Notes: generated from the letters alone by a model not told the origin. DNA of 64,000 nt from Patescibacteria group bacterium (GCA_049322215.1 JBMORU010000001.1:708023-772022); one strand, 5' to 3'; shown: positions 5,040-31,221, numbered from the stretch's first letter. Numbers and translations: made by a program.

Positions 5040-5837
5040 CTAGCACTTGGAAGGATCTCCTAACGAGCCATCGCCTGTGAACCCTGACTTGTGATATCCA
5101 TCGTCGAAGCCAGAAAGACCAAAACCTTCCATATAAAAAAACAGATCTCCAACACCAGGACCAGCCAACACCTTAATAGCAATAACTGGTTCGGGGTTTA
5201 TAACACCTGTACAAAACTCAAATGTACCAGATGCATAGTACTTTTGCAGTTCTAGTCTGTTTCTTTTTCCAGCGGCATTTGGACTTTCATATTCTTCTCT
5301 GATTTCAGAATTTTTAAGGTCACAATATTTATATTCTCCACTACGGCGCAGTGTTGCTTCATTAATTGTAACTACCTGATGATATTGAGTGTACCAGGTA
5401 GCTCCAACAGCTTTGTAGTAAGAGTCTATCCACATTGCTCCATCTAACGGCACGTTATTTCCTTCAGTGTAAGTTACCCATTCCCAATCACCTCTAACAG
5501 GATCAAGAGTATAGGCTGCAGGTTCTCCATTTGAGCATTGAACGTTTCCATAAACTGGATACGGCGCCCAAGAAGTATCTGCACGTCGTCTTATTTGTCC
5601 TGCCTGCAAAATGAATTCTTCCCAGTTGCTTCCCTTCCACATACGAATTTCACCATTGGGTCCTGAGCTAAATTGAATTAGTTCCTGTCCCGTGGTGCCA
5701 TTGATGTAGTGAGTTTTTCCATTGACAATGAAATCTCGCAAATCAACAGAATATGCGGCCTTAGCGGAATTAACCGTTAACAAAACACTTGCCAGTAAAA
5801 ACAATAAAACGATCGGTAAGCTTACCTTATACTTCAT
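5040..5837 (-). CDS. Secreted hypothetical protein (cleavable signal peptide)
   Basis: RBS AAGGAGATAA precedes ATG. N-terminus MKYKVSLPIVLLFLLASVLLTVNSAKA. Confidence 0.5.
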   Translation of the reverse strand: MKYKVSLPIVLLFLLASVLLTVNSAKAAYSVDLRDFIVNGKTHYINGTTGQELIQFSSGPNGEIRMWKGSNWEEFILQAGQIRRRADTSWAPYPVYGNVQCSNGEPAAYTLDPVRGDWEWVTYTEGNNVPLDGAMWIDSYYKAVGATWYTQYHQVVTINEATLRRSGEYKYCDLKNSEIREEYESPNAAGKRNRLELQKYYASGTFEFCTGVINPEPVIAIKVLAGPGVGDLFFYMEGFGLSGFDDGYHKSGFTGDGSLGDPSKC

Positions 5838-11083: not shown

Positions 11084-11158
11084 TGGTGACCCCACGGGGA
11101 ATCGAACCCCGATTTCCAGGATGAAAACCTGACGTCCTAACCATTAGACGATGGGGCC
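11084..11158 (-). tRNA. tRNA-Glu (anticodon UUC)
   Basis: The reverse complement folds as a 75-nt cloverleaf. Acceptor GGCCCCA/TGGGGTC, anticodon loop TTTTCAT (U33, UUC, A37), T-loop GGTTCGATTCC, 3' ACCA. Confidence 0.85.
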
Positions 11159-11241: not shown

Positions 11242-12696
11242 TTGGTAAAATTCTACTGCTTAGGTAACAGTATGTCTGCATTTATTAAAACAATATTATT
11301 TTATGTAACTTCCTTTATTTTAGCGGTTTATCCGGCTACTACTTATGTAGAAGGAGTTACAGGGCAACCTCAATCTTTCTTTCCTCATCAAGCAAGATCA
11401 CAAAATGATGTCACTATTTCAAATTTAGTTTATAGGGGATTATTTAAATACGACATTTATGGCGCCTTAGTGCCTGATTTAGCAGAAAGTTGGGCAATTT
11501 CAGAAGAAGGCATTGTGTATACAATAAAGTTAAAAGATGACCAATACTGGTCTGATGGTACTCAAATTACTGCTGATGATTTAATTTATACATCTTTTAA
11601 GCATCCGTTACTTCAAGGTGTGGCAACAGATAAAGTTGATAATTTAACTGTACGTTTTACTCTTCCAAATAAATTTTCACCATTTTTGAGTTTATTAACT
11701 GTAGGAATAATGCGGGTTAATTCGGAAGAAAATTATAATTCGCTAGAACCTGTAACTAGTGGGCCTTTTAGATTACTAAGTATTAAAAGGTCAGGCCCTA
11801 TAGTGCAGGAAGTCGTTTTACTAAACGAAAAATCTGATGATGAGTTTAGAAAGTTGGTTTTTAGGTATTACACCAATGAAGATGAGCTAGTTACTGCAGC
11901 ACAGTTGGGAGAAATTGATGGTTTTGTTGCCTCTGCAAACCATGAATTGGATAACTTTCAAAAGTATGAGTTTCCATTGCAAGGCGTTTACTACTCTTTA
12001 ATATTCAACTTGCGTAACGAAAAATTACAAGATGTGGAAACAAGGCGTTCTCTAGAAAAAGTTTTAAACAAAGATGACTTAATATATCCATTTGGTATTG
12101 CGGTTGAAGGTGCAATAAGTAGAAGCTCGTATACAGATGATGCTTTAGAATTTGATGCTTACGATAAAGATTTTGTTGGTGACTTAAAAGGTTTAGAACT
12201 CACTTTAACTTTACCCGATTTAGAACAACATGAAATAGTGTCAAAAAAGGTTCAAGATGCTTGGGAAGATAAATTGAATGCTGAAATAACTTTAAATAAA
12301 GTGGCACCTGCAGAAATGCAAGAACAAATCATAAAAGATCGAAATTTCGAAGTTTTACTTTATGGACAAGAGGTAGGAAGAGACCCCGACAGATACATAA
12401 ACTGGCACTCGACACAGCAAGATGTACCAGGTTTAAATTTGTCTGGTTTTGAGCAAATTCGTGCGGATCGCGCATTAGAAGAGGGTCGTAATGAGCCTGA
12501 TAGTGATATAAGATTTACACACTACCAAGAGTTTCAAAGAGTAGTGCATGAACAAGTTCCTGCAATATTTTTGTATCACCCTTTCATTAAGTATTATGTT
12601 TCTGACTATATTAAAGGTATCGGAGAAAAATACACATTTAGATACACCGATCGCTTTTTAGACTTTAGTAATTGGTCGCGCGAAAAGACCAACTAA
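11242..12696 (+). CDS. Extracellular solute-binding protein, family 5 (OppA/DppA-like). Orphan, with no adjacent permease genes.
   Basis: N-terminal TM/signal and overall SBP_bac_5 layout. Start codon uncertain; ATG 11269 is an alternative. Confidence 0.5.
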   Translation: MVKFYCLGNSMSAFIKTILFYVTSFILAVYPATTYVEGVTGQPQSFFPHQARSQNDVTISNLVYRGLFKYDIYGALVPDLAESWAISEEGIVYTIKLKDDQYWSDGTQITADDLIYTSFKHPLLQGVATDKVDNLTVRFTLPNKFSPFLSLLTVGIMRVNSEENYNSLEPVTSGPFRLLSIKRSGPIVQEVVLLNEKSDDEFRKLVFRYYTNEDELVTAAQLGEIDGFVASANHELDNFQKYEFPLQGVYYSLIFNLRNEKLQDVETRRSLEKVLNKDDLIYPFGIAVEGAISRSSYTDDALEFDAYDKDFVGDLKGLELTLTLPDLEQHEIVSKKVQDAWEDKLNAEITLNKVAPAEMQEQIIKDRNFEVLLYGQEVGRDPDRYINWHSTQQDVPGLNLSGFEQIRADRALEEGRNEPDSDIRFTHYQEFQRVVHEQVPAIFLYHPFIKYYVSDYIKGIGEKYTFRYTDRFLDFSNWSREKTN

Positions 12697-12791: not shown

Positions 12792-14078
12792 ATGACAATC
12801 TATGGAAAAAAGATCCCTGTTTGGGTGATCGCTTTACTTGGCCTTGGTTTGATGTTTTGCTTTGCTGCGGCATTTTTTGCTGGAGTATTGCTCACTAATA
12901 ATGGAGCCTTGCCTGAGAACCCTCTTGTACAGGTTGGCGCTTCTCCGGCACCACGATCTCAAACTGTAAGTGCAGAAGACGTAACCTTAGCCGGTTCTGG
13001 AGCAATTGAAACCGCCGTGTGCATTCATGTGGACTTCACATGGGATGATGGCAAAGACAAGTCTATGCTTGAGACTGCGAAACAAATTGGTGCTGATTGT
13101 GTTCGTGTAGGCAGTAGCTGGCGCTTGCAAGAAAAAGTCCAAGGTGCGTACGAAACCAATTGGTACGTGCCCGCTTTGGTGCAACGCTTGGTTTGGGCAC
13201 AAGAAAACGACCTTGCTGTGATCTTGATTCAAGGTCAAACACCTTGTTGGGCGTCGGCAGACCCCAATAAACCTGAGTGTGTAAACGCTGCGGGCGAAGG
13301 TGTTGAAGCTGGTTTTGATTTTTGGTGTCCTGCTCCCGAGCATTTTGGTGCTTTTGCGCAGTCAGTAAGGTTTTTGGTTGAAAACAATCCTGGGTACATT
13401 GTTGCCGTTGAGGTATGGAACGAACCCAATGATGCTGCTTTTTGGTGTGGAAACCCTGACCCGGCTGCTTACACCGAGCTTGTTCGCCAAACTGCTGTTG
13501 CTTTAGAAGGTCTTGATGTGCAGATTTATGGCGGTGCAATTGCTGGCGCTGACACTAACTTTACGCAAGCACTGTTTGATGCGGGTATTGGCAATCATAT
13601 TGACGCTTTTACCTTGCATGCCTACAGTGGAAGCTTGCCGCCTAGTAATTGTGGTAATCCTGAACGGTCGTTTCTCTGCGGAATCCAAGCAGTTCATGAG
13701 GTTGCAGTTGAAAATGGTTTCGAAGGCCCCCTAGTAGTAACCGAAGTTGGATGGCCTACAAACCCGATTGAGGTTTACAACCTTGTGGGGCAAGATGAAA
13801 CAGAGGATACACTTTCAATCGATGTGGATAGCTTTGTATTGGGTGAAGATGGCTTTGTTACCGAACCCACTCAAGCGCAGTACCTAGTAAACGCAATCAA
13901 ACTAGCTAACCAAATGCCGTTTGTTCAGGGAGTTGTGCTTTTTGAAATGCTTGATCGCCCTGGTGAAGGTGGCGCCCCCTCAATTTGGCGTGACCAAAAC
14001 TACGGCCTGTTTGACCTCAATGGAGATCCAAAGGAAGCAGCGTTTGCTTTGCAGGAAATTTTGGTTGAAGACGAATAA
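12792..14078 (+). CDS. Clan GH-A glycoside hydrolase, membrane-anchored, encoded on a GC-rich segment
   Basis: RBS AAGGAG. N-terminal TM. VWNEPN acid/base motif and VTEVGWPT nucleophile motif. GC-rich, so it produces several spurious antisense ORFs. Confidence 0.55.
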   Translation: MTIYGKKIPVWVIALLGLGLMFCFAAAFFAGVLLTNNGALPENPLVQVGASPAPRSQTVSAEDVTLAGSGAIETAVCIHVDFTWDDGKDKSMLETAKQIGADCVRVGSSWRLQEKVQGAYETNWYVPALVQRLVWAQENDLAVILIQGQTPCWASADPNKPECVNAAGEGVEAGFDFWCPAPEHFGAFAQSVRFLVENNPGYIVAVEVWNEPNDAAFWCGNPDPAAYTELVRQTAVALEGLDVQIYGGAIAGADTNFTQALFDAGIGNHIDAFTLHAYSGSLPPSNCGNPERSFLCGIQAVHEVAVENGFEGPLVVTEVGWPTNPIEVYNLVGQDETEDTLSIDVDSFVLGEDGFVTEPTQAQYLVNAIKLANQMPFVQGVVLFEMLDRPGEGGAPSIWRDQNYGLFDLNGDPKEAAFALQEILVEDE

Positions 14079-14199: not shown

Positions 14200-15774
14200 C
14201 TATGTTTTATGGTGGCCGTAGTTCAGTGGTAGAGCGCCTCCCTGTGGAGGAGGATGTCGCGGGTTCGAATCCCGTCGGCCACCCCATAGTATGCTTATCC
14301 GAATGCTTCCTAATTCTATTAAGTCCTTTATTCCTGGTGTTAAGTGAAATACTAGTTTTTTATCCTCAGTAACCTCTAGCTTCTCAAAGAAGATACCGAT
14401 GTAAATTCTCTTTTCATCGAGCGTAGCTTCCTTATATGCTTTACCAATATTTTCGGCTAACTTAAGGAATTTACTAAGCTCATTCAGCTTTTCATTGTAA
14501 TCTCTATCCACTTTTTTGAGCTTTTGCCCTATTTCCCTGAGATCGTTGGTATATCGCACAGCTATACTTTCATATTTATCTGAATCTATAGTCCTTCTTA
14601 AGAACCTATCATCTTCTAGCTCTCTTAAAGCATGTTCAATATTGGTTTTAGAAGCTATTAGGCTTTTCGTTTCTGAATCTACCATTGATCTGTTTACATG
14701 TATAACCTCTTTCGCTTGCGTCATTACCTCGTTTACGTACTCTTCGCTTAGCTGGATTTTTTCCATATATTTTTCCACTTGCTTTTCAAGTTTGTCACAA
14801 AGTATATAAGTTCCCCTATGCCTGGTTGAGTCGGAGTACCAACACGACCTTACACCCTGCTTATTTGTATGGTATTCAGCATATGCTAGACCTTGGGTCT
14901 TTCTGTAAAAAAGAATGCCTCTTAAAAGAAAATCATGCTTTCTTTTTCTACAAGCGTAGTGGTTACGTTTTGCCATAACCAGTTGAACATGGTCAAACAA
15001 CTCTTGGCTTATAAGTGGTTCATATTTGCCTTGGTGTATTTCTTCCTTCCATCTAAATTTCCCTATGTAATATGGATTTTTCAATATATGTTCAATAAGC
15101 CTGGCTGTGCACCGCTTAGCTCTTTTAGGTTTTATTCCCTTGTCATTAAGCATTTCTGCGAGGTACTCATATGAATATTCACCAGTAGAGTACATGTTAA
15201 ATAGCTGAATAATGTAGTTTTTAGTCTTTGGGTTGGGGATAACAATCTTTTTATCAAAGTTAGAACTTGGTGTATCGGGATTTTCCACGTTTTTATAGCC
15301 AATGGGTGCCTCCTTAGGAGGCCACCCAGCTTTGGCTTTTTGGTACATGTTATCACTAGTTACACGTTTGATTTTATCTGACTTATACTGTGCTATAGCT
15401 GCCATCATTGAATCTAGGAACATACCGTCGGGGTTAGATAGATCAATTTCCATTGTGGCATAGATTAATTTAACACCCTTTTCCATCAGTGTTTCTCGAA
15501 GAGCAGTATGTTCCTTAAGGTTTCTCATGAGCCTGTCATTTTCGTAGGTTATAATGGCATCAGGCTTATCTTCGTCAACTGCAGCCATTAGTAATTTATA
15601 CTCGGACCTCTGTGTGTTAGTTCCAGTCTTTCCCTTATCAATAAAGGTTCTGATAATACTGTATCCATTGATTTTAGCCCAATTGTTTAATGCTATTTCC
15701 TGAGCTTCTAAACTTAGACCCTTGTCTTTCTGTTTCTTTGTTGAAACACGAATATACGCTAATGCTGTTTTCAT
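14200..15774 (-). CDS. Large serine recombinase (resolvase catalytic domain, recombinase domain and zinc-ribbon/coiled-coil)
   Basis: N-terminus AYIRVSTKKQ with the catalytic Ser and a length of about 500 aa. The last roughly 25 codons are antisense to tRNA-His with no intervening stop. Confidence 0.8.
   Translation of the reverse strand: MKTALAYIRVSTKKQKDKGLSLEAQEIALNNWAKINGYSIIRTFIDKGKTGTNTQRSEYKLLMAAVDEDKPDAIITYENDRLMRNLKEHTALRETLMEKGVKLIYATMEIDLSNPDGMFLDSMMAAIAQYKSDKIKRVTSDNMYQKAKAGWPPKEAPIGYKNVENPDTPSSNFDKKIVIPNPKTKNYIIQLFNMYSTGEYSYEYLAEMLNDKGIKPKRAKRCTARLIEHILKNPYYIGKFRWKEEIHQGKYEPLISQELFDHVQLVMAKRNHYACRKRKHDFLLRGILFYRKTQGLAYAEYHTNKQGVRSCWYSDSTRHRGTYILCDKLEKQVEKYMEKIQLSEEYVNEVMTQAKEVIHVNRSMVDSETKSLIASKTNIEHALRELEDDRFLRRTIDSDKYESIAVRYTNDLREIGQKLKKVDRDYNEKLNELSKFLKLAENIGKAYKEATLDEKRIYIGIFFEKLEVTEDKKLVFHLTPGIKDLIELGSIRISILWGGRRDSNPRHPPPQGGALPLNYGHHKT
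14211..14286 (+). tRNA. tRNA-His (anticodon GUG) with the extra 5' G(-1)
   Basis: Cloverleaf with G-1. Acceptor GTGGCCG/CGGCCAC, anticodon loop CTGTGGA, T-loop GGTTCGAATCC, discriminator C, CCA. Confidence 0.85.
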
Positions 15775-15778
15775 CGTC

Positions 15779-16216
15779 TTATTCTCCTTTGCTTTTTAAT
15801 TTGCTTATTGTTTCGGCGTACTTGTGTATTACAGCTTCAAGATAGTTCTTTGCCTCTGTAATCAGTTGGATGATGCCCTCTGTCTCACCGTGTTCAGTGA
15901 AGATGTACTTAGTGTTTTTTGGTAGAAACACATTTACCAGAGCTTGGTAACTAAGGTAGTCAGGTGCTAGCCTTTTTATATCTGTGCAGAGCACAGTTCT
16001 GATGTCTGGTCTTTCCTTCAAAAAGCTCACCATTCTCTTAAACCCAGTACCTTCATGTTCATAGTAGTTATCTCCATTCACAGTGTCAGCAAATACCTCT
16101 ACTGGTTCTAGGCCTTCTCTAACACAAAAATTTATACATTCTCTTCTTTGTTTTGCGACACTATTTTTAGTACCTTTACTGTTTAAATAGATAACGCATT
16201 CTTTATTGTTGTTCAT
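15779..16216 (-). CDS. Resolvase N-terminal-domain-like protein (possibly degenerate; accessory to the recombinase)
   Basis: VIYLNSKGTKNS...Q resembles the YxRVS(T)xxQ region. Ends 4 bp upstream of the recombinase start. Confidence 0.4.
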   Translation of the reverse strand: MNNNKECVIYLNSKGTKNSVAKQRRECINFCVREGLEPVEVFADTVNGDNYYEHEGTGFKRMVSFLKERPDIRTVLCTDIKRLAPDYLSYQALVNVFLPKNTKYIFTEHGETEGIIQLITEAKNYLEAVIHKYAETISKLKSKGE

Positions 16217-16565
16217 CTTTGTCTTTCTAGATTGCCCTATATGTATGGAGTGCTATACTCAAACAACTAGAGCAATCGTAATTTAATTACTAATTAAATA
16301 CTTTTGCACTTCAAATAAGGACTTCGCCTATCAAACAGAGGTCCTTATTTTTATTTTATAGGCTTAACAAATAATCACTATTTGTATAGCCAATCGGCTG
16401 TGCATGAGCGCAAGCGAAGCGAGCGCGAATGCGCGATAGAGTCAAGGGATGTAATCCCTTGCGAGGGGTGTGGGGGCGAGGAGCCCTCACAGTTCATTTA
16501 TAAGAATTACCTTGTATTATTAGTGTTCTATAGCATGTCCGAAATGCCGTACAATAATGTCCCAT

Positions 16566-16934
16566 TTACTTTGACTTCTTATAAATGTTGTTATCTCTTA
16601 TCAGACCCTCCAGATAATAGATATTTGATCTGACTCCTATTTTTCTCTCAGTTCCGTTCTTCTTATTTGCTACGTGTACTACACCGCCTCTTTTAACTTT
16701 TAACAGTTTTTCTTTTTCTAGGATTCTTACTAAACGTCTGATTTGTCTTACGGAAAGCCCCAGATCAGTTGATATCAGCTCTTGACTAGGCCAGCAGTGA
16801 TCTTTGCCTCCTAGTTTTTTAATCAGGTACTCCAGCAGTAGTTTTGCGCCACTAGGAATGTTTTTGTTGCTTAGAACGTTTGCTACTTTTTTTATATCCC
16901 TCACGTAGTACTTCTCTTGTACCTTGTCTTTCAT
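16566..16934 (-). CDS. Winged helix-turn-helix DNA-binding protein (mobile-element regulator or replication-organiser type)
   Basis: CWPSQELISTDLGLSVRQIRRLVRILEKEKLL is the classic 'CWPS...G.S.R.I.R...L...GLI' wHTH signature. Confidence 0.5.
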   Translation of the reverse strand: MKDKVQEKYYVRDIKKVANVLSNKNIPSGAKLLLEYLIKKLGGKDHCWPSQELISTDLGLSVRQIRRLVRILEKEKLLKVKRGGVVHVANKKNGTERKIGVRSNIYYLEGLIRDNNIYKKSK

Positions 16935-17107
16935 CTAAATCACCTCCTTTAGAAAACTCATTACATTTATTGGAAGACCTATTCAACTGAAGGTAGAAAA
17001 GCTCAGCTAGTTGTTTAGCTACTATTTTGTTTTTCGCCTCCAATTTGGTTTCCATGGAGGACATCATAGGGGGGTTTTATTAGAATGTCAGGGACAGTAA
17101 AAAGCTA

Positions 17108-17908
17108 TTAGCTGTATTGTTTATCATGCCGATATAACGCCAAATTATTAGTGTATCTTGCAAGTGCCTTTTCTACAGATTTTGAGTCAAGTGCTACGTT
17201 ACAGTATATGCAGTCCTTTAGTTCACTTGCGGTATGTTTACTTTTCTTTGGACATTTGCTTATTAAGAATTCTTCTATTTCTTTTTTACTTCTAGTTATA
17301 TTTATGCCTTGAAGTAGCTTAGGTCCGTTCACGAACCAATAGAGAGACCTGTCTCTGTCAATTTCTTTTTTGATCTTGCTATGTTCTGCATAATACCCAA
17401 TATAACTAGAATCTCTATTAGTTTCCCCTTTCTGTATTGCTACAACAGCTCTATTTCGTTTATTTTCGAATTCCTTGAAACACTGCTCTACTTCTAGTTG
17501 GCTTGATTCAGGCGTAATAACAATCATGTATTCCTTATCGTTTAGGAATAACTCAGGGTGTTTGAGATTTGGTGGTTGTAGCATCCTTTCTTGTAGCATT
17601 GTAGGCACGTAGCTATCATCAAACACCTTCCCATAAATTACAGCATCTGATATTACGTCGAAATAAGGATAAGTTCTTGCGAACTTAATTCTTATCTCGT
17701 TAATGTCGTTTTCAAATTCAACCGATTCTTCATAAGACAGCTTTGCTTTGAATTTATGTGTTTTTACCTTAGCTTTTTTAGGTTTTAGTTTCCACTTCTT
17801 CCTTAACCTCTCAACTTCGTGAAGAAAGTCGGTATTATCTACTAAATAGGCTATGTTAGCCCTATTTTTACTTGATTTAATATTTCTTAAGTTTATTATT
17901 TCTATCAT
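17108..17908 (-). CDS. Hypothetical protein (island backbone)
   Basis: ORF only. Lys-rich. Confidence 0.4.
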   Translation of the reverse strand: MIEIINLRNIKSSKNRANIAYLVDNTDFLHEVERLRKKWKLKPKKAKVKTHKFKAKLSYEESVEFENDINEIRIKFARTYPYFDVISDAVIYGKVFDDSYVPTMLQERMLQPPNLKHPELFLNDKEYMIVITPESSQLEVEQCFKEFENKRNRAVVAIQKGETNRDSSYIGYYAEHSKIKKEIDRDRSLYWFVNGPKLLQGINITRSKKEIEEFLISKCPKKSKHTASELKDCIYCNVALDSKSVEKALARYTNNLALYRHDKQYS

Positions 17909-18059: not shown

Positions 18060-19514
18060 ATGTTCGAACAAGCTTTTAGAAATATAGACAATGCCTTATG
18101 GAAAGACCCTGGTTGTTCTAGTGAATTAGACTATGTGGAGCAAACCTCTTGGATTTTGTTTTTGAAGTACCTAGATGATTTGGAGAAAGATAAAGCTACA
18201 GAAGCTTCTTTAGCAGGTCGTTTATTTGGGCCTATTATTTTGCCAGAATTTCAATGGGATTCATGGGCATGTCCTAAGGGAAAAGATGGGAAAATTGATT
18301 ATAACAAGGCTAGAACAGGAGATGACTTGCGAGATTTTGTTAACGACTCATTGTTTCCATATCTAAGAAAGTTTAAGGCCAATGCTGAAAGCGCAGATAC
18401 TATCGAATATAAGGTAGGTGAAATCTTCAGCGAATTAAAAAACAAAGTACAAAGTGGTTACACCTTAAGAAATGTACTGGATATTGTGGATACCATGAGT
18501 TTTAGGTCACAAGAAGAAAAGCATGAACTATCTTATCTTTATGAAGCAAAAATACAAAACATGGGCAATGCTGGTCGTAATGGCGGTGAATACTACACGC
18601 CACGACCACTAATTAAAACTATTGTTAAAGTTGTAGCTCCTAAAATAGGGGATAGAGTTTATGACGGTGCCGTTGGGTCAGCAGGATTTTTGGTAGAGGC
18701 ATACGAGTATCTTAAAAAGACAAAGGATTTAACCACTAAAGACATAGAAACTCTACAAAGAAGTACCTTCTATGGTAAAGAGAAGAAGTCTTTAGCTTAC
18801 ATCATAGGCATAATGAACATGATTTTGCACGGGATTGAAGCTCCAAACATTATCCATACAAATACTCTTTCAGAAAACATTACAGATATACAGGAAAAAG
18901 ATAGGTATGACATAGTTCTAGCAAATCCTCCTTTTGGTGGTAAGGAAAGACAAGAGGTTCAACAAAACTTTCCTATTAAAACAAGTGAAACAGCCTTTTT
19001 ATTCCTACAACACTTCATAAAGATACTTAAGGCAGGAGGTAGTGCAGGTGTTGTTATAAAAAACACCTTTTTGTCTAACACAGACAATGCATCTACAGCA
19101 CTAAGACAACATTTACTAGAAACATGCGATTTACACACAATACTAGATTTACCAAGTGGCGTATTTACAGGTGCAGGTGTAAAAACAGTCGTTTTGTTTT
19201 TTAAAAAAGGCTCTCCAACTAAAAAGGTTTGGTACTACAGATTAAATCTAGCTCGTAATTTGGGCAAAACAAATCCTTTAAATGAAAAAGACTTAGTTGA
19301 TTTCGTTGAGTTACAAAAAACAAAGGCGGATAGTGATAGCTCTTGGAGTGTTGATGTAAAAGACATAGATCAAAAGACATTTGATTTGTCGGTAAAAAAT
19401 CCAAATTCAGTTGAAGAGGTGATTTTACGCGATCCTCAAGAAATACTGGCAGAAATTAGGGAACTAGATGAGGAAAGTAGGAAAATTTTAGATAACATTG
19501 CAGGACTAATTTGA
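18060..19514 (+). CDS. hsdM: Type I restriction-modification system, N6-adenine DNA methyltransferase subunit M
   Basis: GEYYTPRPL (motif I region) and NPPFGG (motif IV). Confidence 0.85.
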   Translation: MFEQAFRNIDNALWKDPGCSSELDYVEQTSWILFLKYLDDLEKDKATEASLAGRLFGPIILPEFQWDSWACPKGKDGKIDYNKARTGDDLRDFVNDSLFPYLRKFKANAESADTIEYKVGEIFSELKNKVQSGYTLRNVLDIVDTMSFRSQEEKHELSYLYEAKIQNMGNAGRNGGEYYTPRPLIKTIVKVVAPKIGDRVYDGAVGSAGFLVEAYEYLKKTKDLTTKDIETLQRSTFYGKEKKSLAYIIGIMNMILHGIEAPNIIHTNTLSENITDIQEKDRYDIVLANPPFGGKERQEVQQNFPIKTSETAFLFLQHFIKILKAGGSAGVVIKNTFLSNTDNASTALRQHLLETCDLHTILDLPSGVFTGAGVKTVVLFFKKGSPTKKVWYYRLNLARNLGKTNPLNEKDLVDFVELQKTKADSDSSWSVDVKDIDQKTFDLSVKNPNSVEEVILRDPQEILAEIRELDEESRKILDNIAGLI

Positions 19515-20717
19515 ATGTCATTAGGTAATTGGACATCACATAAGTTAAAAGATTTGTGCTATAAAATTACTGATGGTAGCCATAACCCACCAAAAGGTGT
19601 ACCTTCAAGTCCTTATTTAATGCTAAGTTCCAAGAATGTTAATAACGATCTGCTAACTTTTGATAAGCCTAGGTACTTAGACGAAAAGAATTATATTGCA
19701 GAGAATAAACGTACACAGGTGCAGGAAGGAGACGTGCTTCTGACTATTGTAGGGACTATTGGTAGAGCTGCAGTTATTTCTAAAGGAGTAGAAAATTTAA
19801 CATTCCAACGTAGTGTTGCAGTACTAAAGCCTAGAAAGCAACTTGTAAGCTCTAGGTTTTTAATGTATTTGTTGCAGTTTAATTTTGAGTTGTTAAATAA
19901 AAACGCCAGGGGGGTTGCTCAAAAGGGTATTTACTTAAGACAACTGAATGATCTATCAGTTTATATACCAGATATTCCCACTCAAGATCATATAGTTAGT
20001 GTACTTGATGATGCATTTGTCGATTTAGAAAAGGTGTCCTTCAAATTAGTGGAAAACAGCAAAAATGCAGAGGAACTGTTTTTCTCGCATCTCAATCAAG
20101 CTTTTACTGCACCACTTGATGATAATTGGGTTAGGACACCACTTAGCGCCCATGTAAGGTTCATAGATTACAGAGGAAGGACCCCGAAAAAAACTGAATC
20201 TGGGTTGAAGTTAATTACAGCAAAAAATGTGAAAATGGGCTATTTGCAAAATGCGCCTGAGGAATTTGTTGACGAAAATATCTACAGTTCTTGGATGGTC
20301 CGTGGCATTCCATTAATGGGGGATATTCTTTTTTCCACTGAAGCTCCGATGGGAAATGTTGCTACACTCCATACAAATGAAAAGGTGGTTTTTGCTCAGA
20401 GAATTATCATACTTCAACCTGACAGAAGCATTATAAACCCTGAATTTCTCAAATTTATGCTCATGTCATCTTATTTTCAGAATCTATTGTCAGCTAATGG
20501 TACTGGCGCAACTGTCAAAGGTATTAAATCCAGTATTTTAAAAAGGCTTCCAATAGTATTTCCCAAATCTTTAGGAGAACAGAAAAATCTAGCAGAAAAG
20601 TTCACTCGTTTATCTAGCCAATGCGATGTGCTTAAGGATTCATATAACCACAAGAAAACTATTGTGGAGGAACTAAAAAAATCAATCCTAAACAAAGCCT
20701 TTAGCGGTGAGCTATAA
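19515..20717 (+). CDS. hsdS: Type I restriction-modification system specificity subunit S (two target-recognition domains)
   Basis: Start abuts the hsdM stop. Duplicated TRD architecture with conserved spacer repeats. Confidence 0.75.
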   Translation: MSLGNWTSHKLKDLCYKITDGSHNPPKGVPSSPYLMLSSKNVNNDLLTFDKPRYLDEKNYIAENKRTQVQEGDVLLTIVGTIGRAAVISKGVENLTFQRSVAVLKPRKQLVSSRFLMYLLQFNFELLNKNARGVAQKGIYLRQLNDLSVYIPDIPTQDHIVSVLDDAFVDLEKVSFKLVENSKNAEELFFSHLNQAFTAPLDDNWVRTPLSAHVRFIDYRGRTPKKTESGLKLITAKNVKMGYLQNAPEEFVDENIYSSWMVRGIPLMGDILFSTEAPMGNVATLHTNEKVVFAQRIIILQPDRSIINPEFLKFMLMSSYFQNLLSANGTGATVKGIKSSILKRLPIVFPKSLGEQKNLAEKFTRLSSQCDVLKDSYNHKKTIVEELKKSILNKAFSGEL

Positions 20718-20742
20718 TAAATTTAATTAATTTTTAATATTT

Positions 20743-23061
20743 ATGAACGAAGCAGAAACAAGAGCAGAATACATTGATCCTATGCTAACTAATGCAGGTT
20801 GGGGAGTTGTTGACGGCTCTAAAGTGCTTCGAGAACATCATTTAACAGCAGGAAGAATCCAAGTAGGCGGTGTCAGAGGTAAAAAAGACATTGCTGACTA
20901 TGTTTTAGTATATAAAAACCAAAAACTAGCCATTGTAGAAGCCAAAAAGTTTGATTCTTTACCTACAGAAGGTGTTGCACAAGCCAAGCTTTATGCTGAG
21001 AAGCTTCAACTTTCTTATACATATTCAACCAATGGTCAAAAAGTATATGAGATATGCATGGATACAGGTAAAGAAGACTATATCGATGCTTTTCCTACTC
21101 CTGACGAGCTTTGGAGTAGAGTACATACGGAGCAAAATACATGGAAAGATAAGTTTTCAGCTATACCATTCGAAGATTTTGGTGGTACAAAGCAACCTAG
21201 ATATTATCAGGAAAATGCAACCAACAACGCACTAAATGCCATAGCTGATGACAAAGACCGTATATTGCTAACTTTAGCTACAGGCGTAGGTAAAACATAT
21301 CTTGCATTCCAGATTGCTTGGAAATTATTTCATGCTAGATGGACATTACAAAAAGATGGAGCAAGAAGACCTCGTATACTCTTTCTAGCTGATAGAAATA
21401 TATTAGCCGATCAAGCATTTAACTCCTTCTCGGCTTTTCCAGAAGACGCACTAATAAGAATTAATCCGCTAGATATAAGAAAAAAAGGTGCTGTCCCTAA
21501 AAATGGAAGTATATTCTTTACTATTTTTCAAACCTTTATGAGTGGGCAAGACAATACACCTTACTATGGCGACTATCCTCCTGATTTCTTTGATTTAATA
21601 ATAATTGATGAATGCCATCGTGGTGGTGCTAATGACGAATCTAACTGGCGTGGGATTATGGAATACTTTTCGCCTGCGGTTCAACTAGGTTTAACAGCTA
21701 CACCTAAAAGAAAAGATAACGTGGATACCTATCGTTATTTTGGTGAGCCTGTGTACACATATTCACTTAAGGAAGGTATTAATGACGGATTTTTGACACC
21801 ATTTAAGGTTAAGCGGATTAGAACAACACTAGATGAATATATCTATACCTCTGATGACAAAGTTGTTGAAGGTGAAGTAGAGCAAGGAAAGGTCTACACA
21901 GAACTAGATTTTAACCGAACTATAGAAATTGAAGAACGTGAACGTACCAGAGTAAGAATATTCATGGATGAAATCAACCAAAACGAAAAGACATTGGTGT
22001 TTTGTGCAACTCAAGGGCATGCCTTGTTAGTAAGAGACTTAATCAATCAACTAAAAGAAAGCAAAGATCCTAACTATTGTGTGCGAGTTACTGCTAATGA
22101 TGGGTTTTTAGGTGAACAATATCTAAGGGAATTTCAAGACAACGAAAAAACTATACCTACAATACTTACAACCTCACAAAAACTATCAACTGGTGTTGAT
22201 GCTCGCAATGTTAGAAATATTGTCCTTATGCGTCCTATAAATACAATGGTTGAATTTAAACAAATTGTAGGTAGGGGAACTAGATTATTTGACGGCAAGG
22301 AGTATTTTACAATTTATGACTTTGTTGACGCTTATAAGATGTTTTTAGATGACGAATGGGATGGCGAGCCTGTTGATGAAACTACAATCGATGAAGGTGG
22401 TGGCAGAGAAAAACCAAAAGGTGGTAGAAAAGGTCCAATAGACCCGCCTCCAACACCTCCAGAGCCTGGTCCAGAACCAGTTAAAAGATTAAAAATAAAA
22501 CTAGCCGATGGTAAAGAGCGAGAAATACAGCACATGGTATCAACGTCATTTTGGAGTCCAGATGGCAGGCCTATTTCTGCAGAAGAATTTTTAAAGGAAA
22601 TGTTTGGCAAGCTACCTGAGTTTTTCCAAAGCGAGGAAGAACTACGCTCAATTTGGGCAAATCCAACCACGAGAGCACAATTTTTAGACAAGCTAGAGGA
22701 GCAAGGTTACGGAAAAGCAGAACTAGAGAACCTTAAAAAGGTAGTAAATGCCGAAAATAGCGACTTATTTGATGTTTTGTCTTATGTCTCTTATGCTATT
22801 ACTCCAATCACTAGAGTTGAACGAGTAGCTAAAACCACACCTTTAATGCTGTCAGGTTTAAACGAAAGACACATTGAGTTTTTAGAGTTTGTGTTATCCA
22901 AATATGTTGAAATTGGGGACGAAGAATTGGAAGAAAAGAAGTTGCCAATACTATTAAATTTGAAGTACCAAGCTATTGCAGACGCTGAAAAACTACTAGG
23001 TGGTGTGGAAAAGATTAGAGACACATTTTTTAACTTCCAAAAAGCTTTGTATTCTGCATAA
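20743..23061 (+). CDS. hsdR: Type I restriction enzyme R subunit (short, 772 aa)
   Basis: N-terminus MNEAETRAEYIDPML, Walker A TGVGKT, DECH box (IIDECHRG), helicase C-terminal QIVGRGTR. Confidence 0.8.
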   Translation: MNEAETRAEYIDPMLTNAGWGVVDGSKVLREHHLTAGRIQVGGVRGKKDIADYVLVYKNQKLAIVEAKKFDSLPTEGVAQAKLYAEKLQLSYTYSTNGQKVYEICMDTGKEDYIDAFPTPDELWSRVHTEQNTWKDKFSAIPFEDFGGTKQPRYYQENATNNALNAIADDKDRILLTLATGVGKTYLAFQIAWKLFHARWTLQKDGARRPRILFLADRNILADQAFNSFSAFPEDALIRINPLDIRKKGAVPKNGSIFFTIFQTFMSGQDNTPYYGDYPPDFFDLIIIDECHRGGANDESNWRGIMEYFSPAVQLGLTATPKRKDNVDTYRYFGEPVYTYSLKEGINDGFLTPFKVKRIRTTLDEYIYTSDDKVVEGEVEQGKVYTELDFNRTIEIEERERTRVRIFMDEINQNEKTLVFCATQGHALLVRDLINQLKESKDPNYCVRVTANDGFLGEQYLREFQDNEKTIPTILTTSQKLSTGVDARNVRNIVLMRPINTMVEFKQIVGRGTRLFDGKEYFTIYDFVDAYKMFLDDEWDGEPVDETTIDEGGGREKPKGGRKGPIDPPPTPPEPGPEPVKRLKIKLADGKEREIQHMVSTSFWSPDGRPISAEEFLKEMFGKLPEFFQSEEELRSIWANPTTRAQFLDKLEEQGYGKAELENLKKVVNAENSDLFDVLSYVSYAITPITRVERVAKTTPLMLSGLNERHIEFLEFVLSKYVEIGDEELEEKKLPILLNLKYQAIADAEKLLGGVEKIRDTFFNFQKALYSA

Positions 23062-23441: not shown

Positions 23442-23996
23442 TTACAATCCCCAGATCGCTGTAGTTTGATTATCGCAAAACATTGTAAGTGTTTGTGGCT
23501 TCATGCTGAATGGATTAAATCTGTTTGAGTCTTTGTCTACAAACTTTGCATATCCAAGTGTTAATGTTTCTCCTATCTCTACACCAAACACCTCTTGTGG
23601 TTGTGCAAACTTTGGGTACGAAGGGAAGTAGTAGGCGTTATTCAAGCTCATGTAGCAATTTTCCCATGCAAAGTTGTTAAGGTTTGTAAGTTTCACTTGA
23701 GCATCGTTGTGTAGTAACTCAGACTGGGTTTGTCTTTTTGTAGGCTTAGGAGTTGGTGCCGTTTGAGGTGTTTCAGCAGGTAGGCTTGATGGGTCAACGA
23801 ATAACATTGTTACAAAACCCGACAGTGCTCCAATTATAAGTAGTAGCATGAAGCCTTTAATTATGGTTTCAAGGAACGAACCTTTTTTCTTTTTTACTGG
23901 GGAGGTGTTTGAATTTTGTACTGAGGAATTACGAATTTGAGCACGAAATTGCTCTTCTTCTAGAATCTTTTGCTTTTCAGTTTCTGTTAATGCCAT
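23442..23996 (-). CDS. Hypothetical single-pass membrane protein
   Basis: The ORF track begins at a TTG (24056). I prefer the internal ATG giving MALTETEKQ... One TM helix. Confidence 0.4.
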   Translation of the reverse strand: MALTETEKQKILEEEQFRAQIRNSSVQNSNTSPVKKKKGSFLETIIKGFMLLLIIGALSGFVTMLFVDPSSLPAETPQTAPTPKPTKRQTQSELLHNDAQVKLTNLNNFAWENCYMSLNNAYYFPSYPKFAQPQEVFGVEIGETLTLGYAKFVDKDSNRFNPFSMKPQTLTMFCDNQTTAIWGL

Positions 23997-24030
23997 CTTG
24001 ACCTTTCCAGAGTTGTTGAATAAATACAAA

Positions 24031-24143
24031 AAGGGACAACTCTTCTGTAACGTCAAGCCGGGAAGCCATTAGTCCTAGGAAAGAGTTGCCCCTTTTTAGG
24101 ACTAATGGCATTGCCATAAGTTTAATTAATAGCTTCCCGGCTT
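24031..24143. repeat. Nested triple inverted-repeat structure (complex stem-loops)
   Basis: Outer pair AAGCCGGGAAGC/GCTTCCCGGCTT, middle pair CATTAGTCCTAG/CTAGGACTAATG, inner pair GGGACAACTCTT/AAGAGTTGCCCC. Confidence 0.55.
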
Positions 24144-24190: not shown

Positions 24191-24484
24191 TTATTCGTCA
24201 ATAGGAAATAAAGAAAGAGAAGTAAATCTTTTTGAAGCTTTCATTATAGGTTCCAGCTCCTCACACAGAGTGTTAAAGTCCTGACTTGTTTTTTCTAATG
24301 ATTTATAGAAGCAGTTTATACAATATCTGAAATTTCCCATACCCCTACAGCGTTTAATATCTACAGCGTAATTTCCTGCAAGCAGTTGCTCATTGCATAT
24401 TTTACATTTGGATACTTTTTTGACTTTAACCAACTTTGGTTTTCCCAGATTACTGCTGATCAAAGAGGGTGGTGTTTTGGACAT
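24191..24484 (-). CDS. Small zinc-ribbon protein (two CxxC pairs)
   Basis: CKIC...CRG...CINC pattern. Its start overlaps the 3' end of the helicase gene by 35 nt. Confidence 0.45.
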   Translation of the reverse strand: MSKTPPSLISSNLGKPKLVKVKKVSKCKICNEQLLAGNYAVDIKRCRGMGNFRYCINCFYKSLEKTSQDFNTLCEELEPIMKASKRFTSLSLFPIDE

Positions 24485-26528
24485 CTTTCTTTATAATCTT
24501 GCTTTGTTTTGCAAGAATCTCATCTCTTAATTTTCTACTAATCTCAGGTAGCGACCTAATGATTTCTTTAAACTCTGTTATTGACCACTGGTTACGCTCT
24601 TTGTTGCCAAGACTATATTTTATCTTCTGATTTAGCAAAATTTTTAGTGCCACTAAATTATTTGAAGCATTTGGTAGCTGGTAGCCATATTTAAAAGGAA
24701 TCTCGATTCCGGTAACTTCTAACTTGCATATATTTAGTATGGCTTTCACATTTCTCGATACGTCTGCGTCTAGTCGTGCCCTTAATCCCTGCCATTCCTT
24801 TTGAGGTTGTACTACTATTTTAGGCATTGCCCTCACAGTGTCCATTCCCTTATGACGGCTTTCTAAAGTTTTTTCAATTAATTCCTCTGTAATATCTACT
24901 CCTAAGTTAGCGTAGAATGATCTGATTTCTTTTTTGAGTAATTCCTCATCATCAAGAAAATCTTCAGTAAATAGTTGATCCACTATTTCCTTGTTTACAA
25001 CCACCCTTTCTTCCATTCTTTGAATTGTCCTACCTTCTTTTATATCTTCTCGTGGAATGCTAGGTTCCGGACTTGGTTCTCCCCCCAGGACACTTGCCCA
25101 AAATTCTTCGTCGTCGCTATCAAATGCTCTAAACTCTTCGAATCTGTTATCAAGATTCATGCCTATATGGGTCACTATATACCCGTAGTTATCTGGGTGC
25201 CCGGGAGAATTCTGTACTACTACACGTAGTATTCTGCCTACGAATTGTATGTATGGGGATAAAGATCTAAATGGGTTGAAGATTGCTGCTACACTTAGCT
25301 TTGGATGATCAAAACCTTCTCCAAGCATTTGTACTTGCACAATGCAATCCAAAAGCCCTGCTTTAAGCTTTCTTTTTACCTCCTCCTGTTTTCCTGGATC
25401 CATTTTGGAATGTATTACCTCAGTTGTGTATCCGCGTTCATTGTACAAACTGCATATTTTTTCTGCATGTGAAATTGACATAGCTACTGCTATTATTTGG
25501 TGTTGTGTGCCTGTTAGTCTTAGCTCCTCTAGTTTTCCCAGGCTGTTGTCAACAATACTTATGTTGCAGGCTTCTGAGGTAGCTATCCCTCTACTAAACC
25601 AATCCTCTTCCTTCATTTTAAGAATCTCTTCTAGGGTGTATTCCTTCGTGCTTTTTTCATCCGTAAATTTCAATTCTATAGTATCAGGGGCAACATAATA
25701 TGATGCTAATCGTTTAATAAATCCTTTGGTAGTAGCACTTTTAAAAGAATATCTATAAACTAACTTACCTTCAATTTCCTGTTTATCAGATCTAAATGGT
25801 GTCGCAGTTAAGAATAGTTTTTTAGCGTTAGTAAACTTATTAAAAACCATAGTCCAGCTCTTCGCAGGGCTGTGGTGTGCCTCATCAACAATTATCATAT
25901 CGAAAAAGTCTGATTCAAACTTGTCTAACCATTTATTTGGGTTTGTTGCAAGCTGTTGCACGTTTGATACTACGAAGTGAGATTCTTGGCAAATGGAGAG
26001 GTTAGAATTCTCAAGTGTTGTTACGTAGGGACCTGATAGCATGTCCTCTTCTCTTAATACGGAAGTTTTTTTCCAAAAACACTTAGAATGATTAAGATCT
26101 AGCGTATCCCTAAGTTCGTCTCTTATTGTTAGATTAGGTGAAAGAACAAGCACCCTACCAGATGACACCCCGAATGGGACTATTGCTGCAGTTCCAGATT
26201 TTCCACATCCCACAGGCAATTGTACAATTGCTGGTGTAACTTCATTACCACTATCAAAATAATCTCTTACTGCAACATATGCTTCCATCTGTGGTTCTCT
26301 TAAGGAGTAATTGTCTTCAATGTAGGCATGTGTGCTCTTGAAAAAATCCTTTATGCCTTTGCTTCTTAATACCCACTCATCTAGTAATTCCCTGTTGAAT
26401 ACCCAACGGTTCTTAACCTTGTTTACTGGAATTTTTCCGTTTTGTGCAAGGCCATAAAGCGTAGTTTTCCCTATGCTAAGGTATTTAGAAGCTTGTTCAA
26501 GTGTCAGCCAGTTATCGTTAGTTATCAT
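24450..26528 (-). CDS. Excisionase-type HTH fused to an SF2 DEAH-box helicase (ResIII-like N-lobe plus helicase C-lobe) with an uncharacterised C-terminal domain of about 200 aa
   Basis: N-terminus LTLEQASKYLSIGKTTLYGLAQNGKIPVNKV (HTH_17-like). Walker A GCGKSG, DEAH (IVDEAHH), TAT motif III, motif VI QFVGRILR. Confidence 0.7.
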   Translation of the reverse strand: MITNDNWLTLEQASKYLSIGKTTLYGLAQNGKIPVNKVKNRWVFNRELLDEWVLRSKGIKDFFKSTHAYIEDNYSLREPQMEAYVAVRDYFDSGNEVTPAIVQLPVGCGKSGTAAIVPFGVSSGRVLVLSPNLTIRDELRDTLDLNHSKCFWKKTSVLREEDMLSGPYVTTLENSNLSICQESHFVVSNVQQLATNPNKWLDKFESDFFDMIIVDEAHHSPAKSWTMVFNKFTNAKKLFLTATPFRSDKQEIEGKLVYRYSFKSATTKGFIKRLASYYVAPDTIELKFTDEKSTKEYTLEEILKMKEEDWFSRGIATSEACNISIVDNSLGKLEELRLTGTQHQIIAVAMSISHAEKICSLYNERGYTTEVIHSKMDPGKQEEVKRKLKAGLLDCIVQVQMLGEGFDHPKLSVAAIFNPFRSLSPYIQFVGRILRVVVQNSPGHPDNYGYIVTHIGMNLDNRFEEFRAFDSDDEEFWASVLGGEPSPEPSIPREDIKEGRTIQRMEERVVVNKEIVDQLFTEDFLDDEELLKKEIRSFYANLGVDITEELIEKTLESRHKGMDTVRAMPKIVVQPQKEWQGLRARLDADVSRNVKAILNICKLEVTGIEIPFKYGYQLPNASNNLVALKILLNQKIKYSLGNKERNQWSITEFKEIIRSLPEISRKLRDEILAKQSKIIKKDVQNTTLFDQQ

Positions 26529-26909: not shown

Positions 26910-27179
26910 TGTGAGGCAGGACTACCCAGGCATGTATTCTTAAGTTAACTTAGCCAAATCAAAACCACCCGTGTAAAACTCCCCATAAATGAAATCCTCC
27001 ACATACTGCCTCACTTTTGTAGCATATGTTGAAGGACCCCAATAAAAACACCCTTTAACAGCAACATTTCTAGCTATACCCAAATGTTAAATTGAACCCC
27101 AGTTAACCCTGTAGTATACTAGCCCCAAGTTATATTCCCGTTAATACTGGTCATCTGACACAAAGGAGAAAGCTATCTA

Positions 27180-30380: not shown

Positions 30381-31115
30381 ATGAACTTCAAATTCTTAAT
30401 AGACGAAAAACTACTATTCTTTGTATGTTTAACCAAAGGTAACAAAACAGAAAGCTGGGTTGATTTGCAAAATGAACTTTGGGACAAATACAGGCTAGGT
30501 TATAAATTACTTCAGGGTAAAATGTTGGGTTTCTTTGTCTCATCCAAAGAGGATTCATTGTCAAAAGCAACTGCAGAAGTTGACGCCTTGTTTAAAGAAG
30601 GTTTGACCTCACATGTATTTTCTACAATATTAAAAAACACCCAAGAATATAAACAGTGGCTAGAAAACGAATGGAAACACAACAAGACCAAAGTTTTAAC
30701 TGAACTGGAGGACATCTTAAAAATACCTCTTCCAAACCAAGAACATGAAGTTTTCGTTATTTCACGTAAGAGCAACGCAGGCAGAAATATTGGAGGTAAC
30801 AAAATACTATTTGGTCATTCCGAAGATTGGAAAAACTACAGCATAGCATACTTAGTTCATGAAGCATTATATTCTGTATTTGGCAAAAGTGACTTAGAGC
30901 ATGCATTAATAGAATTAGCTACTGATAATGAATTAAGGATTCGCTTAAATGATGGGGAAAAATATTTTAAAGTTGGGGAGTTGGAAGTAGGGCATAAATA
31001 TCTACGTGAGTTAGAAAAGGAAATACTTCCGGAGTGGAGGAAACATTTGGAAGGTAAAAATTCAGTGAATGAGTTGATTAAAAAGTTGAAGTCCACACAA
31101 ATAACTCAAGCCTAA
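30381..31115 (+). CDS. Hypothetical protein
   Basis: ORF only. Confidence 0.4.
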   Translation: MNFKFLIDEKLLFFVCLTKGNKTESWVDLQNELWDKYRLGYKLLQGKMLGFFVSSKEDSLSKATAEVDALFKEGLTSHVFSTILKNTQEYKQWLENEWKHNKTKVLTELEDILKIPLPNQEHEVFVISRKSNAGRNIGGNKILFGHSEDWKNYSIAYLVHEALYSVFGKSDLEHALIELATDNELRIRLNDGEKYFKVGELEVGHKYLRELEKEILPEWRKHLEGKNSVNELIKKLKSTQITQA

Positions 31116-31221
31116 TTAGTTAAGTAGCATAACTTCTCTTCTTACATTCCTCACCACGCCACCCCAAGTTTCACCCACAGTCAAACTTGACATTACTCTT
31201 TGTGTAGAATACTTTCAGTTT

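Follow-up and report, generated by a model that had tools for sequence, protein, structure and literature searches.

A large serine recombinase gene that runs antisense through tRNA-His, and a clade of integrases whose reading frames appear to span their attachment core

Results

We analyzed a 64,000-nucleotide stretch of DNA from a Patescibacteria group bacterium (GCA_049322215.1, JBMORU010000001.1:708023-772022; hereafter the window), in which the reading frame of a large serine recombinase (LSR; here the integrase, int) runs antisense through a whole tRNA-His gene. This locus is very probably the left attachment site (attL) of an integrative island that carries restriction-modification (RM) genes and was inserted by the LSR into tRNA-His at its 3' end. 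The overlap appears to be a trait of a whole LSR clade and not of this locus alone, because the core of the attachment (att) site sits inside the int open reading frame (ORF).

The integrase reading frame and its product

The original prediction held that int continues without a stop through the complement of tRNA-His and that roughly its last 25 residues are dictated by the tRNA. Both statements were borne out, as the ORF covers the tRNA from end to end on the antisense strand (Table 1) and residues 497-521 are wholly encoded by it. Codon W497 (TGG, 14284-14286) is the antisense of the encoded CCA, and residues 522-524 and the TAG stop come from the 12 nt 5' of the tRNA. A search for a terminator of tRNA-His or of int found none.

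Pfam assigned to int a Resolvase domain (PF00239, 6e-33, residues 5-150) and a Recombinase domain (PF07508, 4.1e-17, residues 183-270). The catalytic serine motif YIRVSTKKQ is present, and R9, S11, Q15, R81, and R84 were invariant in the alignment of homologs, of which 278 were found. An AlphaFold2 (AF2) model based on 23 homologs, with a mean predicted local distance difference test score (pLDDT) of 82.6, comprises a catalytic domain with a long E-helix, a recombinase domain, a beta-rich region resembling a zinc ribbon (288-325), and a two-helix coiled coil (344-441; helices 344-392 and 398-441, pLDDT ~85-94), after which a hairpin, a helix, and a strand finish at about residue 493. When the model was searched against the PDB with Foldseek, the top matches were full-length serine integrase complexes, those of Bxb1, PhiC31, and the Listeria LI integrase. 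By its domains, motif, coiled coil, and predicted fold, int is an LSR; recombination between attP and attB at a 2-bp crossover is suggested by the junctions of its relatives.

The conserved body of int stops at about residue 494-496 (...GSIRISIL). Beyond it, residues 495-524 were modeled at pLDDT <50 without secondary structure, and the tRNA-encoded tail (497-524) was not conserved among the homologs. In the locus of the closest homolog (protein P0002, locus L082; 51% identity), the antisense strand of tRNA-His reads TGG GGT GGC TGA and the protein ends ...VLWGG, while the window has TGG GGT GGC CGA; the difference between TGA and CGA amounts to a single compensated pair of the acceptor stem (6:67, U6-A67 versus C6-G67). 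The long tail of int exists because the tRNA-His here has no in-frame antisense stop. We conclude that this tail of 27-28 residues is an accident, a by-product of read-through, in agreement with its lack of conservation and its predicted disorder. It is very unlikely that the tail is instead selected and functional, be it as a regulatory or degradation signal or as an antisense-tRNA part of the int mRNA. Such a role would fit the changing of the C-terminus by integration throughout the clade, where read-through tails of 10-50 residues are common, but tail length and sequence are set only by the position of the first stop in a given tRNA (P0002 has 2 such residues and the int of the window 27), and nothing is conserved beyond what the tRNA dictates in a segment predicted to be disordered.

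Host ownership of tRNA-His

The window carries an SBP_bac_5 gene (SBP) at 11242-12696, and the host order tRNA-Glu (minus strand), SBP (plus), tRNA-His (plus) was kept in four relatives with 60-65% identical SBP genes. In loci L165, L166, and L169, which come from distant relatives (60-65% amino acid identity), tRNA-His directly follows SBP and is empty of integrase, and L082 has the same order of SBP, tRNA-His, and int, with P0002 occupying the site. Because the same tRNA adjoins SBP in relatives without an integrase there, tRNA-His is a host gene; some lineages carry an insertion at its site and others do not. The original prediction had placed the left end of an integrated element here and called for comparison with related genomes lacking the segment; the three relatives that keep the host layout with an empty tRNA-His support the former, and the comparison found the site to be polymorphic.

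A tRNA-His borne by the element itself, which would make the overlap internal to mobile DNA, is scarcely credible and is largely refuted by these data. Mobile elements and phages do carry tRNA genes, and the window holds no displaced tRNA fragment. However, the tRNA stands directly after SBP where no integrase is present, the family overlaps 12 isotypes beside host core genes such as rpoD and dnaG, and in relatives the two element ends are identical only over the final 7-11 nt of the tRNA.

Integrase C-termini across the family

From GTDB species genomes and from metagenomes we took 80 loci each, scanned them with ARAGORN, and retained 116 non-redundant loci after removal of duplicates and of loci with a non-aligning C-terminus. 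The int ORF ended inside a complete antisense tRNA in 58 of the 116 loci (12 isotypes), a recurrence far beyond chance; it ran into a partial tRNA with a T-arm in 14 and into non-tRNA sequence in 36, and was cut by a contig end in the other 8. Entry was always from the tRNA 3' end. Among the 74 overlapping loci before de-duplication, the isotypes were His (21), Asn (18), Ala (8), Glu (7), Val (5), Arg, Leu, and Lys (3 each), Asp and Gln (2 each), and Tyr and Pro (1 each), and the host core genes neighboring the tRNA in family members include rpoD and dnaG. Alignment of the homologs, proposed in the original prediction as a check on the C-terminus, thus extended the overlap to the clade but did not find the tail conserved, with P0002 stopping after WGG.

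In a first alignment, many homologs ended in peptides resembling antisense tRNA in a single register, W-x4-D-S-N. The W codon usually coincides with CCA in the Patescibacteria branch, and in the branch of Actinomycetota and Acidobacteriota the frame is shifted by one, giving GFEP, GIEP, or GLEP tails. Hosts of the clade further include Gastranaerophilales (Melainabacteria-like Cyanobacteria), Gammaproteobacteria, Bacteroidota, Verrucomicrobiota, and Elusimicrobia-like and Chloroflexota genomes. No close relative of int was found in known phages, where the best match was at most 29% identical, and IMG/VR yielded only 2 weak loci.

Both ends of related elements

Crossovers in the anticodon loop or the T-loop leave tRNA fragments of ~20-50 nt. 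No long repeat of the tRNA 3' end was found in the 6-10 kb upstream flanks of 66 relatives, and the window has no further copy of the tRNA-His 3' end of at least 17 nt with up to 3 mismatches; crossovers of this type were therefore rejected for the clade. Both ends could be located in five relatives (L154, L165, L031, L076, and L047), where the core is formed by 7-11 nt of the tRNA 3' terminus and identity between the two element ends is confined to these nucleotides.

In L154, int ends ...ITSPNWLRW inside tRNA-Asn, beyond which lie rpoD and dnaG. Its core TGGCTCC recurs on the same strand 7.4 kb upstream (5.9 kb before the int start) and is followed there by the in-frame tail WLPSPELIITLENWTYIATLKEKLIDLNKLSVLM and a stop; this is the conserved tail, starting WLPSPELIITLENW..., that follows NWLP in 13 loci of class B, in which the ORF is uninterrupted and int adjoins no tRNA. 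The conserved episomal tail of ~35 residues is limited to one subclade, made up of L154 and its class B relatives. L165 (1203-9030), from the same host lineage as the window, is a 7.8-kb element in tRNA-Glu with a 498-residue LSR and a Type III RM system, and its 11-nt core TGGTGACCCCA is repeated 7.75 kb upstream. The cores of L031 and L076 measure 7 and 9 nt, and their in-frame tails share ...NWNQV(F/V)xEI..., while L047 has an 11-nt core.

These ends indicate that the att core of the clade is the last 7-11 nt of the tRNA gene, made up of the CCA, the discriminator, and the acceptor 3' strand in part or in full, and that it lies inside the int ORF. The ORF is split between the two element ends in these relatives and, as seen at the sequence level in the five and in class B, integration appears to swap the C-terminal tail of int for tRNA-antisense codons. 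Loci with non-tRNA tails represent attP-type junctions, some of them in tandem arrays: int lies 8 kb from tRNA-Asn and rpoD in L114, and L095, L135, and L140 have a second int downstream. Because the cores of the five relatives lie at the tRNA 3' terminus, we place the crossover dinucleotide of the window, by analogy, within the attL core region, inside int codons W497-G499.

Some junctions departed from this pattern. In L116 the int 3' end and its tail occur in two 87%-identical copies (115-234 and 5358-5477) that lie 5,243 nt apart, pointing to a small element that is in tandem or partly duplicated. Directly behind the int stop, the class D loci (L099, L113, L086, L011, and L104) carry a perfect 3' half of tRNA-Asn up to the anticodon loop, then a hairpin that shows compensatory changes and the conserved motif GGACTAT(A/C)TCAT, with no tRNA 5' half nearby; they are possibly accretions of a second, different element family, inserted later into the anticodon loop. 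Reading the class C and class D junctions as T-loop or anticodon-loop crossovers was dropped, since L114 has 7 nt of true identity plus a degenerate similarity like that of a B arm, with its tRNA-Asn 8 kb on. A copy of TGGGGTG 47 nt upstream of int in L126 and L145 was likewise rejected as a right attachment site (attR), as it is conserved element sequence.

A model of integration

We propose that the LSR would insert the island at the extreme 3' end of the host tRNA-His in this Patescibacteria (WWE3-like) genome, through a recombination core that would be at once the last 5-11 nt of the tRNA gene and the last codons of the int ORF. With no int stop codon upstream of the core, the ORF of the episomal (attP) form would run on into the element's other end, and that of the integrated form into the tRNA antisense strand, ending at the first in-frame stop there. 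In the window this stop comes only 12 nt past the tRNA 5' end, leaving int with 27-28 tRNA-dictated residues of predicted disorder. For the window's own int, the location of the core within the ORF would follow from the absence of a stop before it, and an episomal tail would be expected; the island would still be mobile.

Integration might, further, be a physical switch between two isoforms of Int, the episomal tail being encoded at the far end and the integrated isoform losing it and gaining arbitrary tRNA-antisense residues, an idea that we put forward tentatively and with more doubt than confidence. In the clade, a C-terminal -AA was found at 18 of 159 non-redundant non-tRNA ends versus 1 of 98 tRNA-encoded ends (among others in loci L004, L115, L116, and L133 and proteins P0034, P0052, P0078, P0079, P0082, P0091, P0100, P0109, P0113, and P0115). 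These ends resemble ssrA-type ClpXP tags, a hint that integration would remove such a tag; the candidate episomal tails of the window end -LT or -LN, not -AA.

The right end in the window

The original prediction expected the right end to be unmarked by any copy of the tRNA. This holds for long copies; attR is probably marked by a short copy of the tRNA 3' terminus, either one of the 5-6 nt cores at 26,981-27,127 or a 9-mer at 31,158. The former belong to the densest cluster of CCCCA, the 3' pentamer of tRNA-His, in the window (4 copies in 147 nt; Poisson 3e-6 per window, ~1e-3 after scanning), which sits in the intergenic stretch before NDK. One copy forms the core ACCCCA at 27036-27041 (antisense TGGGGT followed by CC) with arms AGCATA/TATGCT, and a 33-codon in-frame tail opens from it. 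This junction and its peptide WGPS resemble the non-tRNA junctions of the His-type P0016 in L172 (TGGGGTCCCAGT, WGPSQDLTRN...) and of L142. Before the copy at 27123-27127 stands ATACTAG, which matches the inverted P' arm TAGTATGCT at 8/9 positions and is symmetric about CC. Inverted-repeat symmetry of P and P' was tried as a selector of attR and proved not decisive.

Trinucleotide composition shifts near 27 kb, with the 27-31 kb segment intermediate in a test partly trained on itself, and housekeeping-type genes start at 27,180 with NDK, followed by NUDIX, Ham1, and PNPOx. The right end would most likely lie at ~27,036-27,127, giving an element from 14,287 to 27,04x-27,12x, or ~12.8 kb. The genes beyond ~27 kb (these four and others) are less likely to be cargo than host DNA or a module accreted earlier. 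The other cores, possibly including that at 31,158, would be scars of earlier accretions, and through an older module the island may reach as far as 31,166.

We also considered a single element of 16.9 kb whose attR is the 9-nt GCCACCCCA at 31,158-31,166, with NDK, three ORFs of ~245 residues, NUDIX, and a 244-residue ORF as cargo and an episomal Int that would end WGGVVRNVRREVMLLN before its stop. This 9-mer is exact, intergenic, and in the right orientation, the next two nucleotides are AG, as they are at the empty sites of relatives, and the length of the 9-mer falls within the 7-11 nt of their cores. PNPOx, just to its right, is the sole gene shared with the tRNA-His neighborhood of L167, and the occurrence of an 81%-identical copy of the 244-residue gene in another context in L171 suggests movement. 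Even so, we hold a 16.9-kb element to be unlikely: 0.20 such 9-mers are expected by chance per shuffled window (both strands), no arm symmetry is seen at 31,158, the composition of 27-31.5 kb is nearer the rest of the chromosome than that of 14-26.6 kb, the 244-residue protein is widespread in genomes of the candidate phyla radiation (CPR), and the CCCCA cluster at ~27 kb would be left unexplained.

Evidence against an intact, mobile island

Several observations weigh against our reading of the locus as the attL of a ~12.8-kb island. The position of the right end is ambiguous: a 6-mer core taken singly does not reach significance, arm symmetry is weak (runs of at least 6 nt occur at ~6% of random positions under tolerant scoring), and ~0.1-0.2 chance matches are expected for the 9-mer. 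Synteny was rejected as a guide to the right end, for in L165-L169 and L171 hardly any gene order is shared apart from SBP and the tRNA. Within int, Pfam found no match to the zinc ribbon PF13408, and the four zinc-ribbon cysteine columns of the alignment hold Y, T, or S in int and P0002. No recombination directionality factor was identified. The tRNA-His site is also occupied in the only other assembly of the strain (Logan SRR32167788).

Several of these points would suit a decayed, immobile relic, its int kept by chance or domesticated and the overlap a frozen accident without function: a clear attR and a directionality factor are missing, the zinc-ribbon cysteines are lost, the surroundings of the locus are heavily rearranged in CPR genomes, and several short core copies suggest old, eroded events. 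We nevertheless consider such a relic quite improbable. The 524-residue ORF is intact, it keeps every motif of the catalytic domain, its predicted fold is confidently that of a full-length LSR, the RM operon and the helicase (below) are intact, and the zinc ribbon without cysteines is common to P0002 and others of the closest homologs, which are also sited at tRNAs. All four cysteines (~residues 285-325) are lost in the sub-branch of int that holds P0002, P0008, and P0009, with the fold kept in the AF2 model; this sub-branch may represent a zinc-independent variant of the LSR zinc-ribbon domain.

Cargo and neighboring genes

Inserted by an LSR at tRNA-His, the island would comprise int, a resolvase paralog, a winged-helix-turn-helix (wHTH) gene, a 266-residue ORF, a Type I RM operon, a 204-residue ORF, and a helicase with an excisionase-type N-terminus (Table 1). 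The series running from int through a 145-residue resolvase-domain ORF 4 nt upstream to the wHTH and 266-residue ORFs matched the original prediction. Of the cargo foreseen there, the Type I RM system is supported, because RM genes recur in relatives' elements (Type I RM genes lie beside family integrases in ~6 other distinct elements); the cassettes beyond ~27 kb are less likely to be cargo, as set out above.

Table 1. Features of the int/tRNA-His locus and candidate element ends in the window
Feature	Position	Strand	Remarks
Large serine recombinase (int) ORF	14200..15774	minus	524 aa; starts MKTALAYIRVSTKKQ, ends ...SILWGGRRDSNPRHPPPQGGALPLNYGHHKT
tRNA-His(GTG), encoded CCA	14212..14286	plus	ARAGORN; Rfam RF00005, full-length, 67.4 bits; host gene and integration target (attB side of attL)
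tRNA-antisense C-terminal tail of int, residues 497-524	14203..14286	minus	WGGRRDSNPRHPPPQGGALPLNYGHHKT; integrated state only
attL core region	14278..14286		last 5-9 nt of tRNA-His (GCCACCCCA), common to candidate attR cores
145-aa resolvase-domain-only ORF	15779..16216	minus	Pfam Resolvase 1.7e-8; 4 nt upstream of int start
Winged-HTH ORF, 122 aa	16566..16934	minus	Pfam HTH_36 4.2e-11
266-aa hypothetical ORF	17108..17908	minus	no Pfam, PHROGs, or PADLOC match
Type I RM	18060..23061	plus	hsdM 18060-19514, hsdS 19515-20717, hsdR 20743-23061
204-aa ORF	23442-24056	minus	no assigned function
692-aa helicase, excisionase-type HTH_17 N-terminus	24450-26528	minus	Pfam HTH_17, ResIII, Helicase_C
Candidate episomal Int tail	26943..27041	minus	WGPSTYATKVRQYVEDFIYGEFYTGGFDLAKLT, then stop; would be in frame from candidate attR core 27036-27041
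CCCCA cluster (tRNA-His 3' pentamer), 4 copies	26981..27127	plus	26981, 27037, 27097, 27123; best candidate attR and older attR relics
Exact 9-nt copy of tRNA-His 3' end	31158..31166	plus	GCCACCCCA; intergenic spacer; alternative attR or outer border of older accreted module
Candidate attP junction for 27,041	27,041 joined to 14,287		...AAGCATACTATGGGGTCCTTCAACATATGC; matching attB: tRNA-His then ATAAAAACACCC
Candidate attP junction for 27,127			...CATACTATGGGGCTAGTATACTACAGG; matching attB: tRNA-His then AGTTATATTCCC
Candidate attP junction for 31,166			...CATACTATGGGGTGGCGTGGTGAGGAATG; matching attB: tRNA-His then AGTTTCACCCAC

The 145-residue ORF lacks the catalytic R-x-S motif: where YxRVST is expected it has YL--NSKG, and RFAV is found in its counterpart in L082 (457-801). 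It may be an inactive accessory or regulatory partner of int. Similar small resolvase-domain ORFs stand beside family integrases in L012, L024, and L147, too sporadically for a conserved family partner, and that reading was rejected. The HTH_36 protein looks like a replication initiator's DNA-binding domain, matching replication-initiation and DnaD-like families of PHROGs at 5e-9 to 2e-5, and a homolog adjoins int in L151. PADLOC recognized all three Type I RM genes (MTase_I 2e-159, Specificity_I 6e-56, and REase_I 6e-134), in agreement with Pfam. In addition to its excisionase-type HTH, the helicase matched a PHROGs DNA helicase family at 1.5e-56 and was PbeA-like in PADLOC. No conjugation or virion genes were found among the window ORFs searched with Pfam, PADLOC, and PHROGs.

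Four further observations concern the surroundings. L081 and L170, the two Logan contigs from this strain, each stop at ~17357-17387 inside the 266-residue ORF with an overlap of ~30 nt, which suggests a branch in the assembly graph, for example a strain variant or a repeat. Between SBP and tRNA-His, the window has a GH5-like gene (12792-14078; Cellulase, weak Pfam match) with a G+C content of 0.48 (13001-14000) against ~0.36 around it; no relative has it at that position, tRNA-His there coming straight after SBP, and it is probably a separate horizontal acquisition. The tRNA-Glu of the window (11084-11158, minus strand) is empty and its equivalent in L165 is occupied by another LSR element, so that tRNA-Glu is a second LSR target in this host lineage. 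The 244-residue protein (30381-31115) has no Pfam family and has homologs across many CPR lineages; its copy in L171 (2210-2950) lies in a wholly different gene context.

Discussion

Int shares with the serine integrases of phages and of integrative and conjugative elements (PhiC31, Bxb1, A118/LI, and TP901-1) a serine resolvase domain, a recombinase domain, as modeled a zinc-ribbon-like beta region with an inserted coiled coil, a gene at the element end, and a short core that leaves no long direct repeats. It differs from them in its low identity to phage proteins, in the missing zinc-ribbon cysteines, and in having a tRNA target instead of a protein-coding gene; in its clade, moreover, the att core lies inside the int ORF and the product differs between the episomal and integrated states.

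The literature treats serine integrases as avoiding tRNA genes. A 2026 provirus survey found a preference of tyrosine integrases for RNA loci, with att cores longer than those of serine integrases, and integration of serine recombinases into tRNA genes has been called rare (Ghinet et al. 2011, PMC3218068). The exceptions reported are eight serine recombinases of Mycobacterium AICEs (integrative and conjugative elements of actinomycetes) at tRNA-Leu and the small serine recombinase of phiRSM at tRNA-Ser (PMC3218068), which resemble the int clade in being serine enzymes with a tRNA 3' end as attB. The Actinomycetota branch of the clade, with its GFEP, GIEP, and GLEP tails, probably includes the AICE kind. 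The papers that we searched make no mention of an ORF running through the core or of a swapped C-terminus, and the open-access literature searched yielded no account of an LSR ORF that contains an att core. The design of an LSR clade that targets tRNA 3' ends with an ORF spanning the att core is consistent across its members and seems undocumented.

Islands of the Islander type resemble the present case in the intact tRNA adjoining int, the defense cargo, the sporadic occupancy, and the tandem accretion at one tRNA, but they are formed by tyrosine integrases and displace a fragment of ~20-50 nt, as opposed to the 5-11 nt of acceptor end plus CCA seen here. In archaeal tyrosine integrases of the SSV1 type, the int gene is partitioned upon integration. 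In mycobacteriophage BPs, whose attP lies inside the repressor ORF, a C-terminal degradation tag is lost when the phage integrates (PMC3694055). Both systems, like the int clade, have an attachment site in coding sequence, and their free and integrated genomes encode different forms of a protein. Unlike them, the clade uses a serine recombinase, the affected gene is the integrase itself, and only the extreme C-terminus is exchanged with the catalytic body left intact. Because int is a serine recombinase, we regard the likeness to SSV1 and BPs as an analogy of mechanism, not membership.

If the two Int isoforms do exist and the tail controls stability or directionality, the clade would offer a serine-recombinase counterpart of integration-dependent immunity and of SSV-type partition, and the element would have a built-in means to sense its own integration. 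The ORF through the whole tRNA in the window is a by-product and does not mark a special gene. The clade to which it belongs spans many phyla and targets the last nucleotides of at least 12 tRNA isotypes, and since its islands leave repeats of only 5-11 nt, they escape finders that look for displaced tRNA fragments. These islands carry defense cargo (RM, abortive infection, and Schlafen-like genes) in ~1 Mb genomes whose mobile DNA is poorly charted. A core within the int ORF predicts an enzyme that differs before and after integration, and the clade, as a collection of many natural pairs of integrase and attB at conserved tRNA ends, may serve genome engineering.

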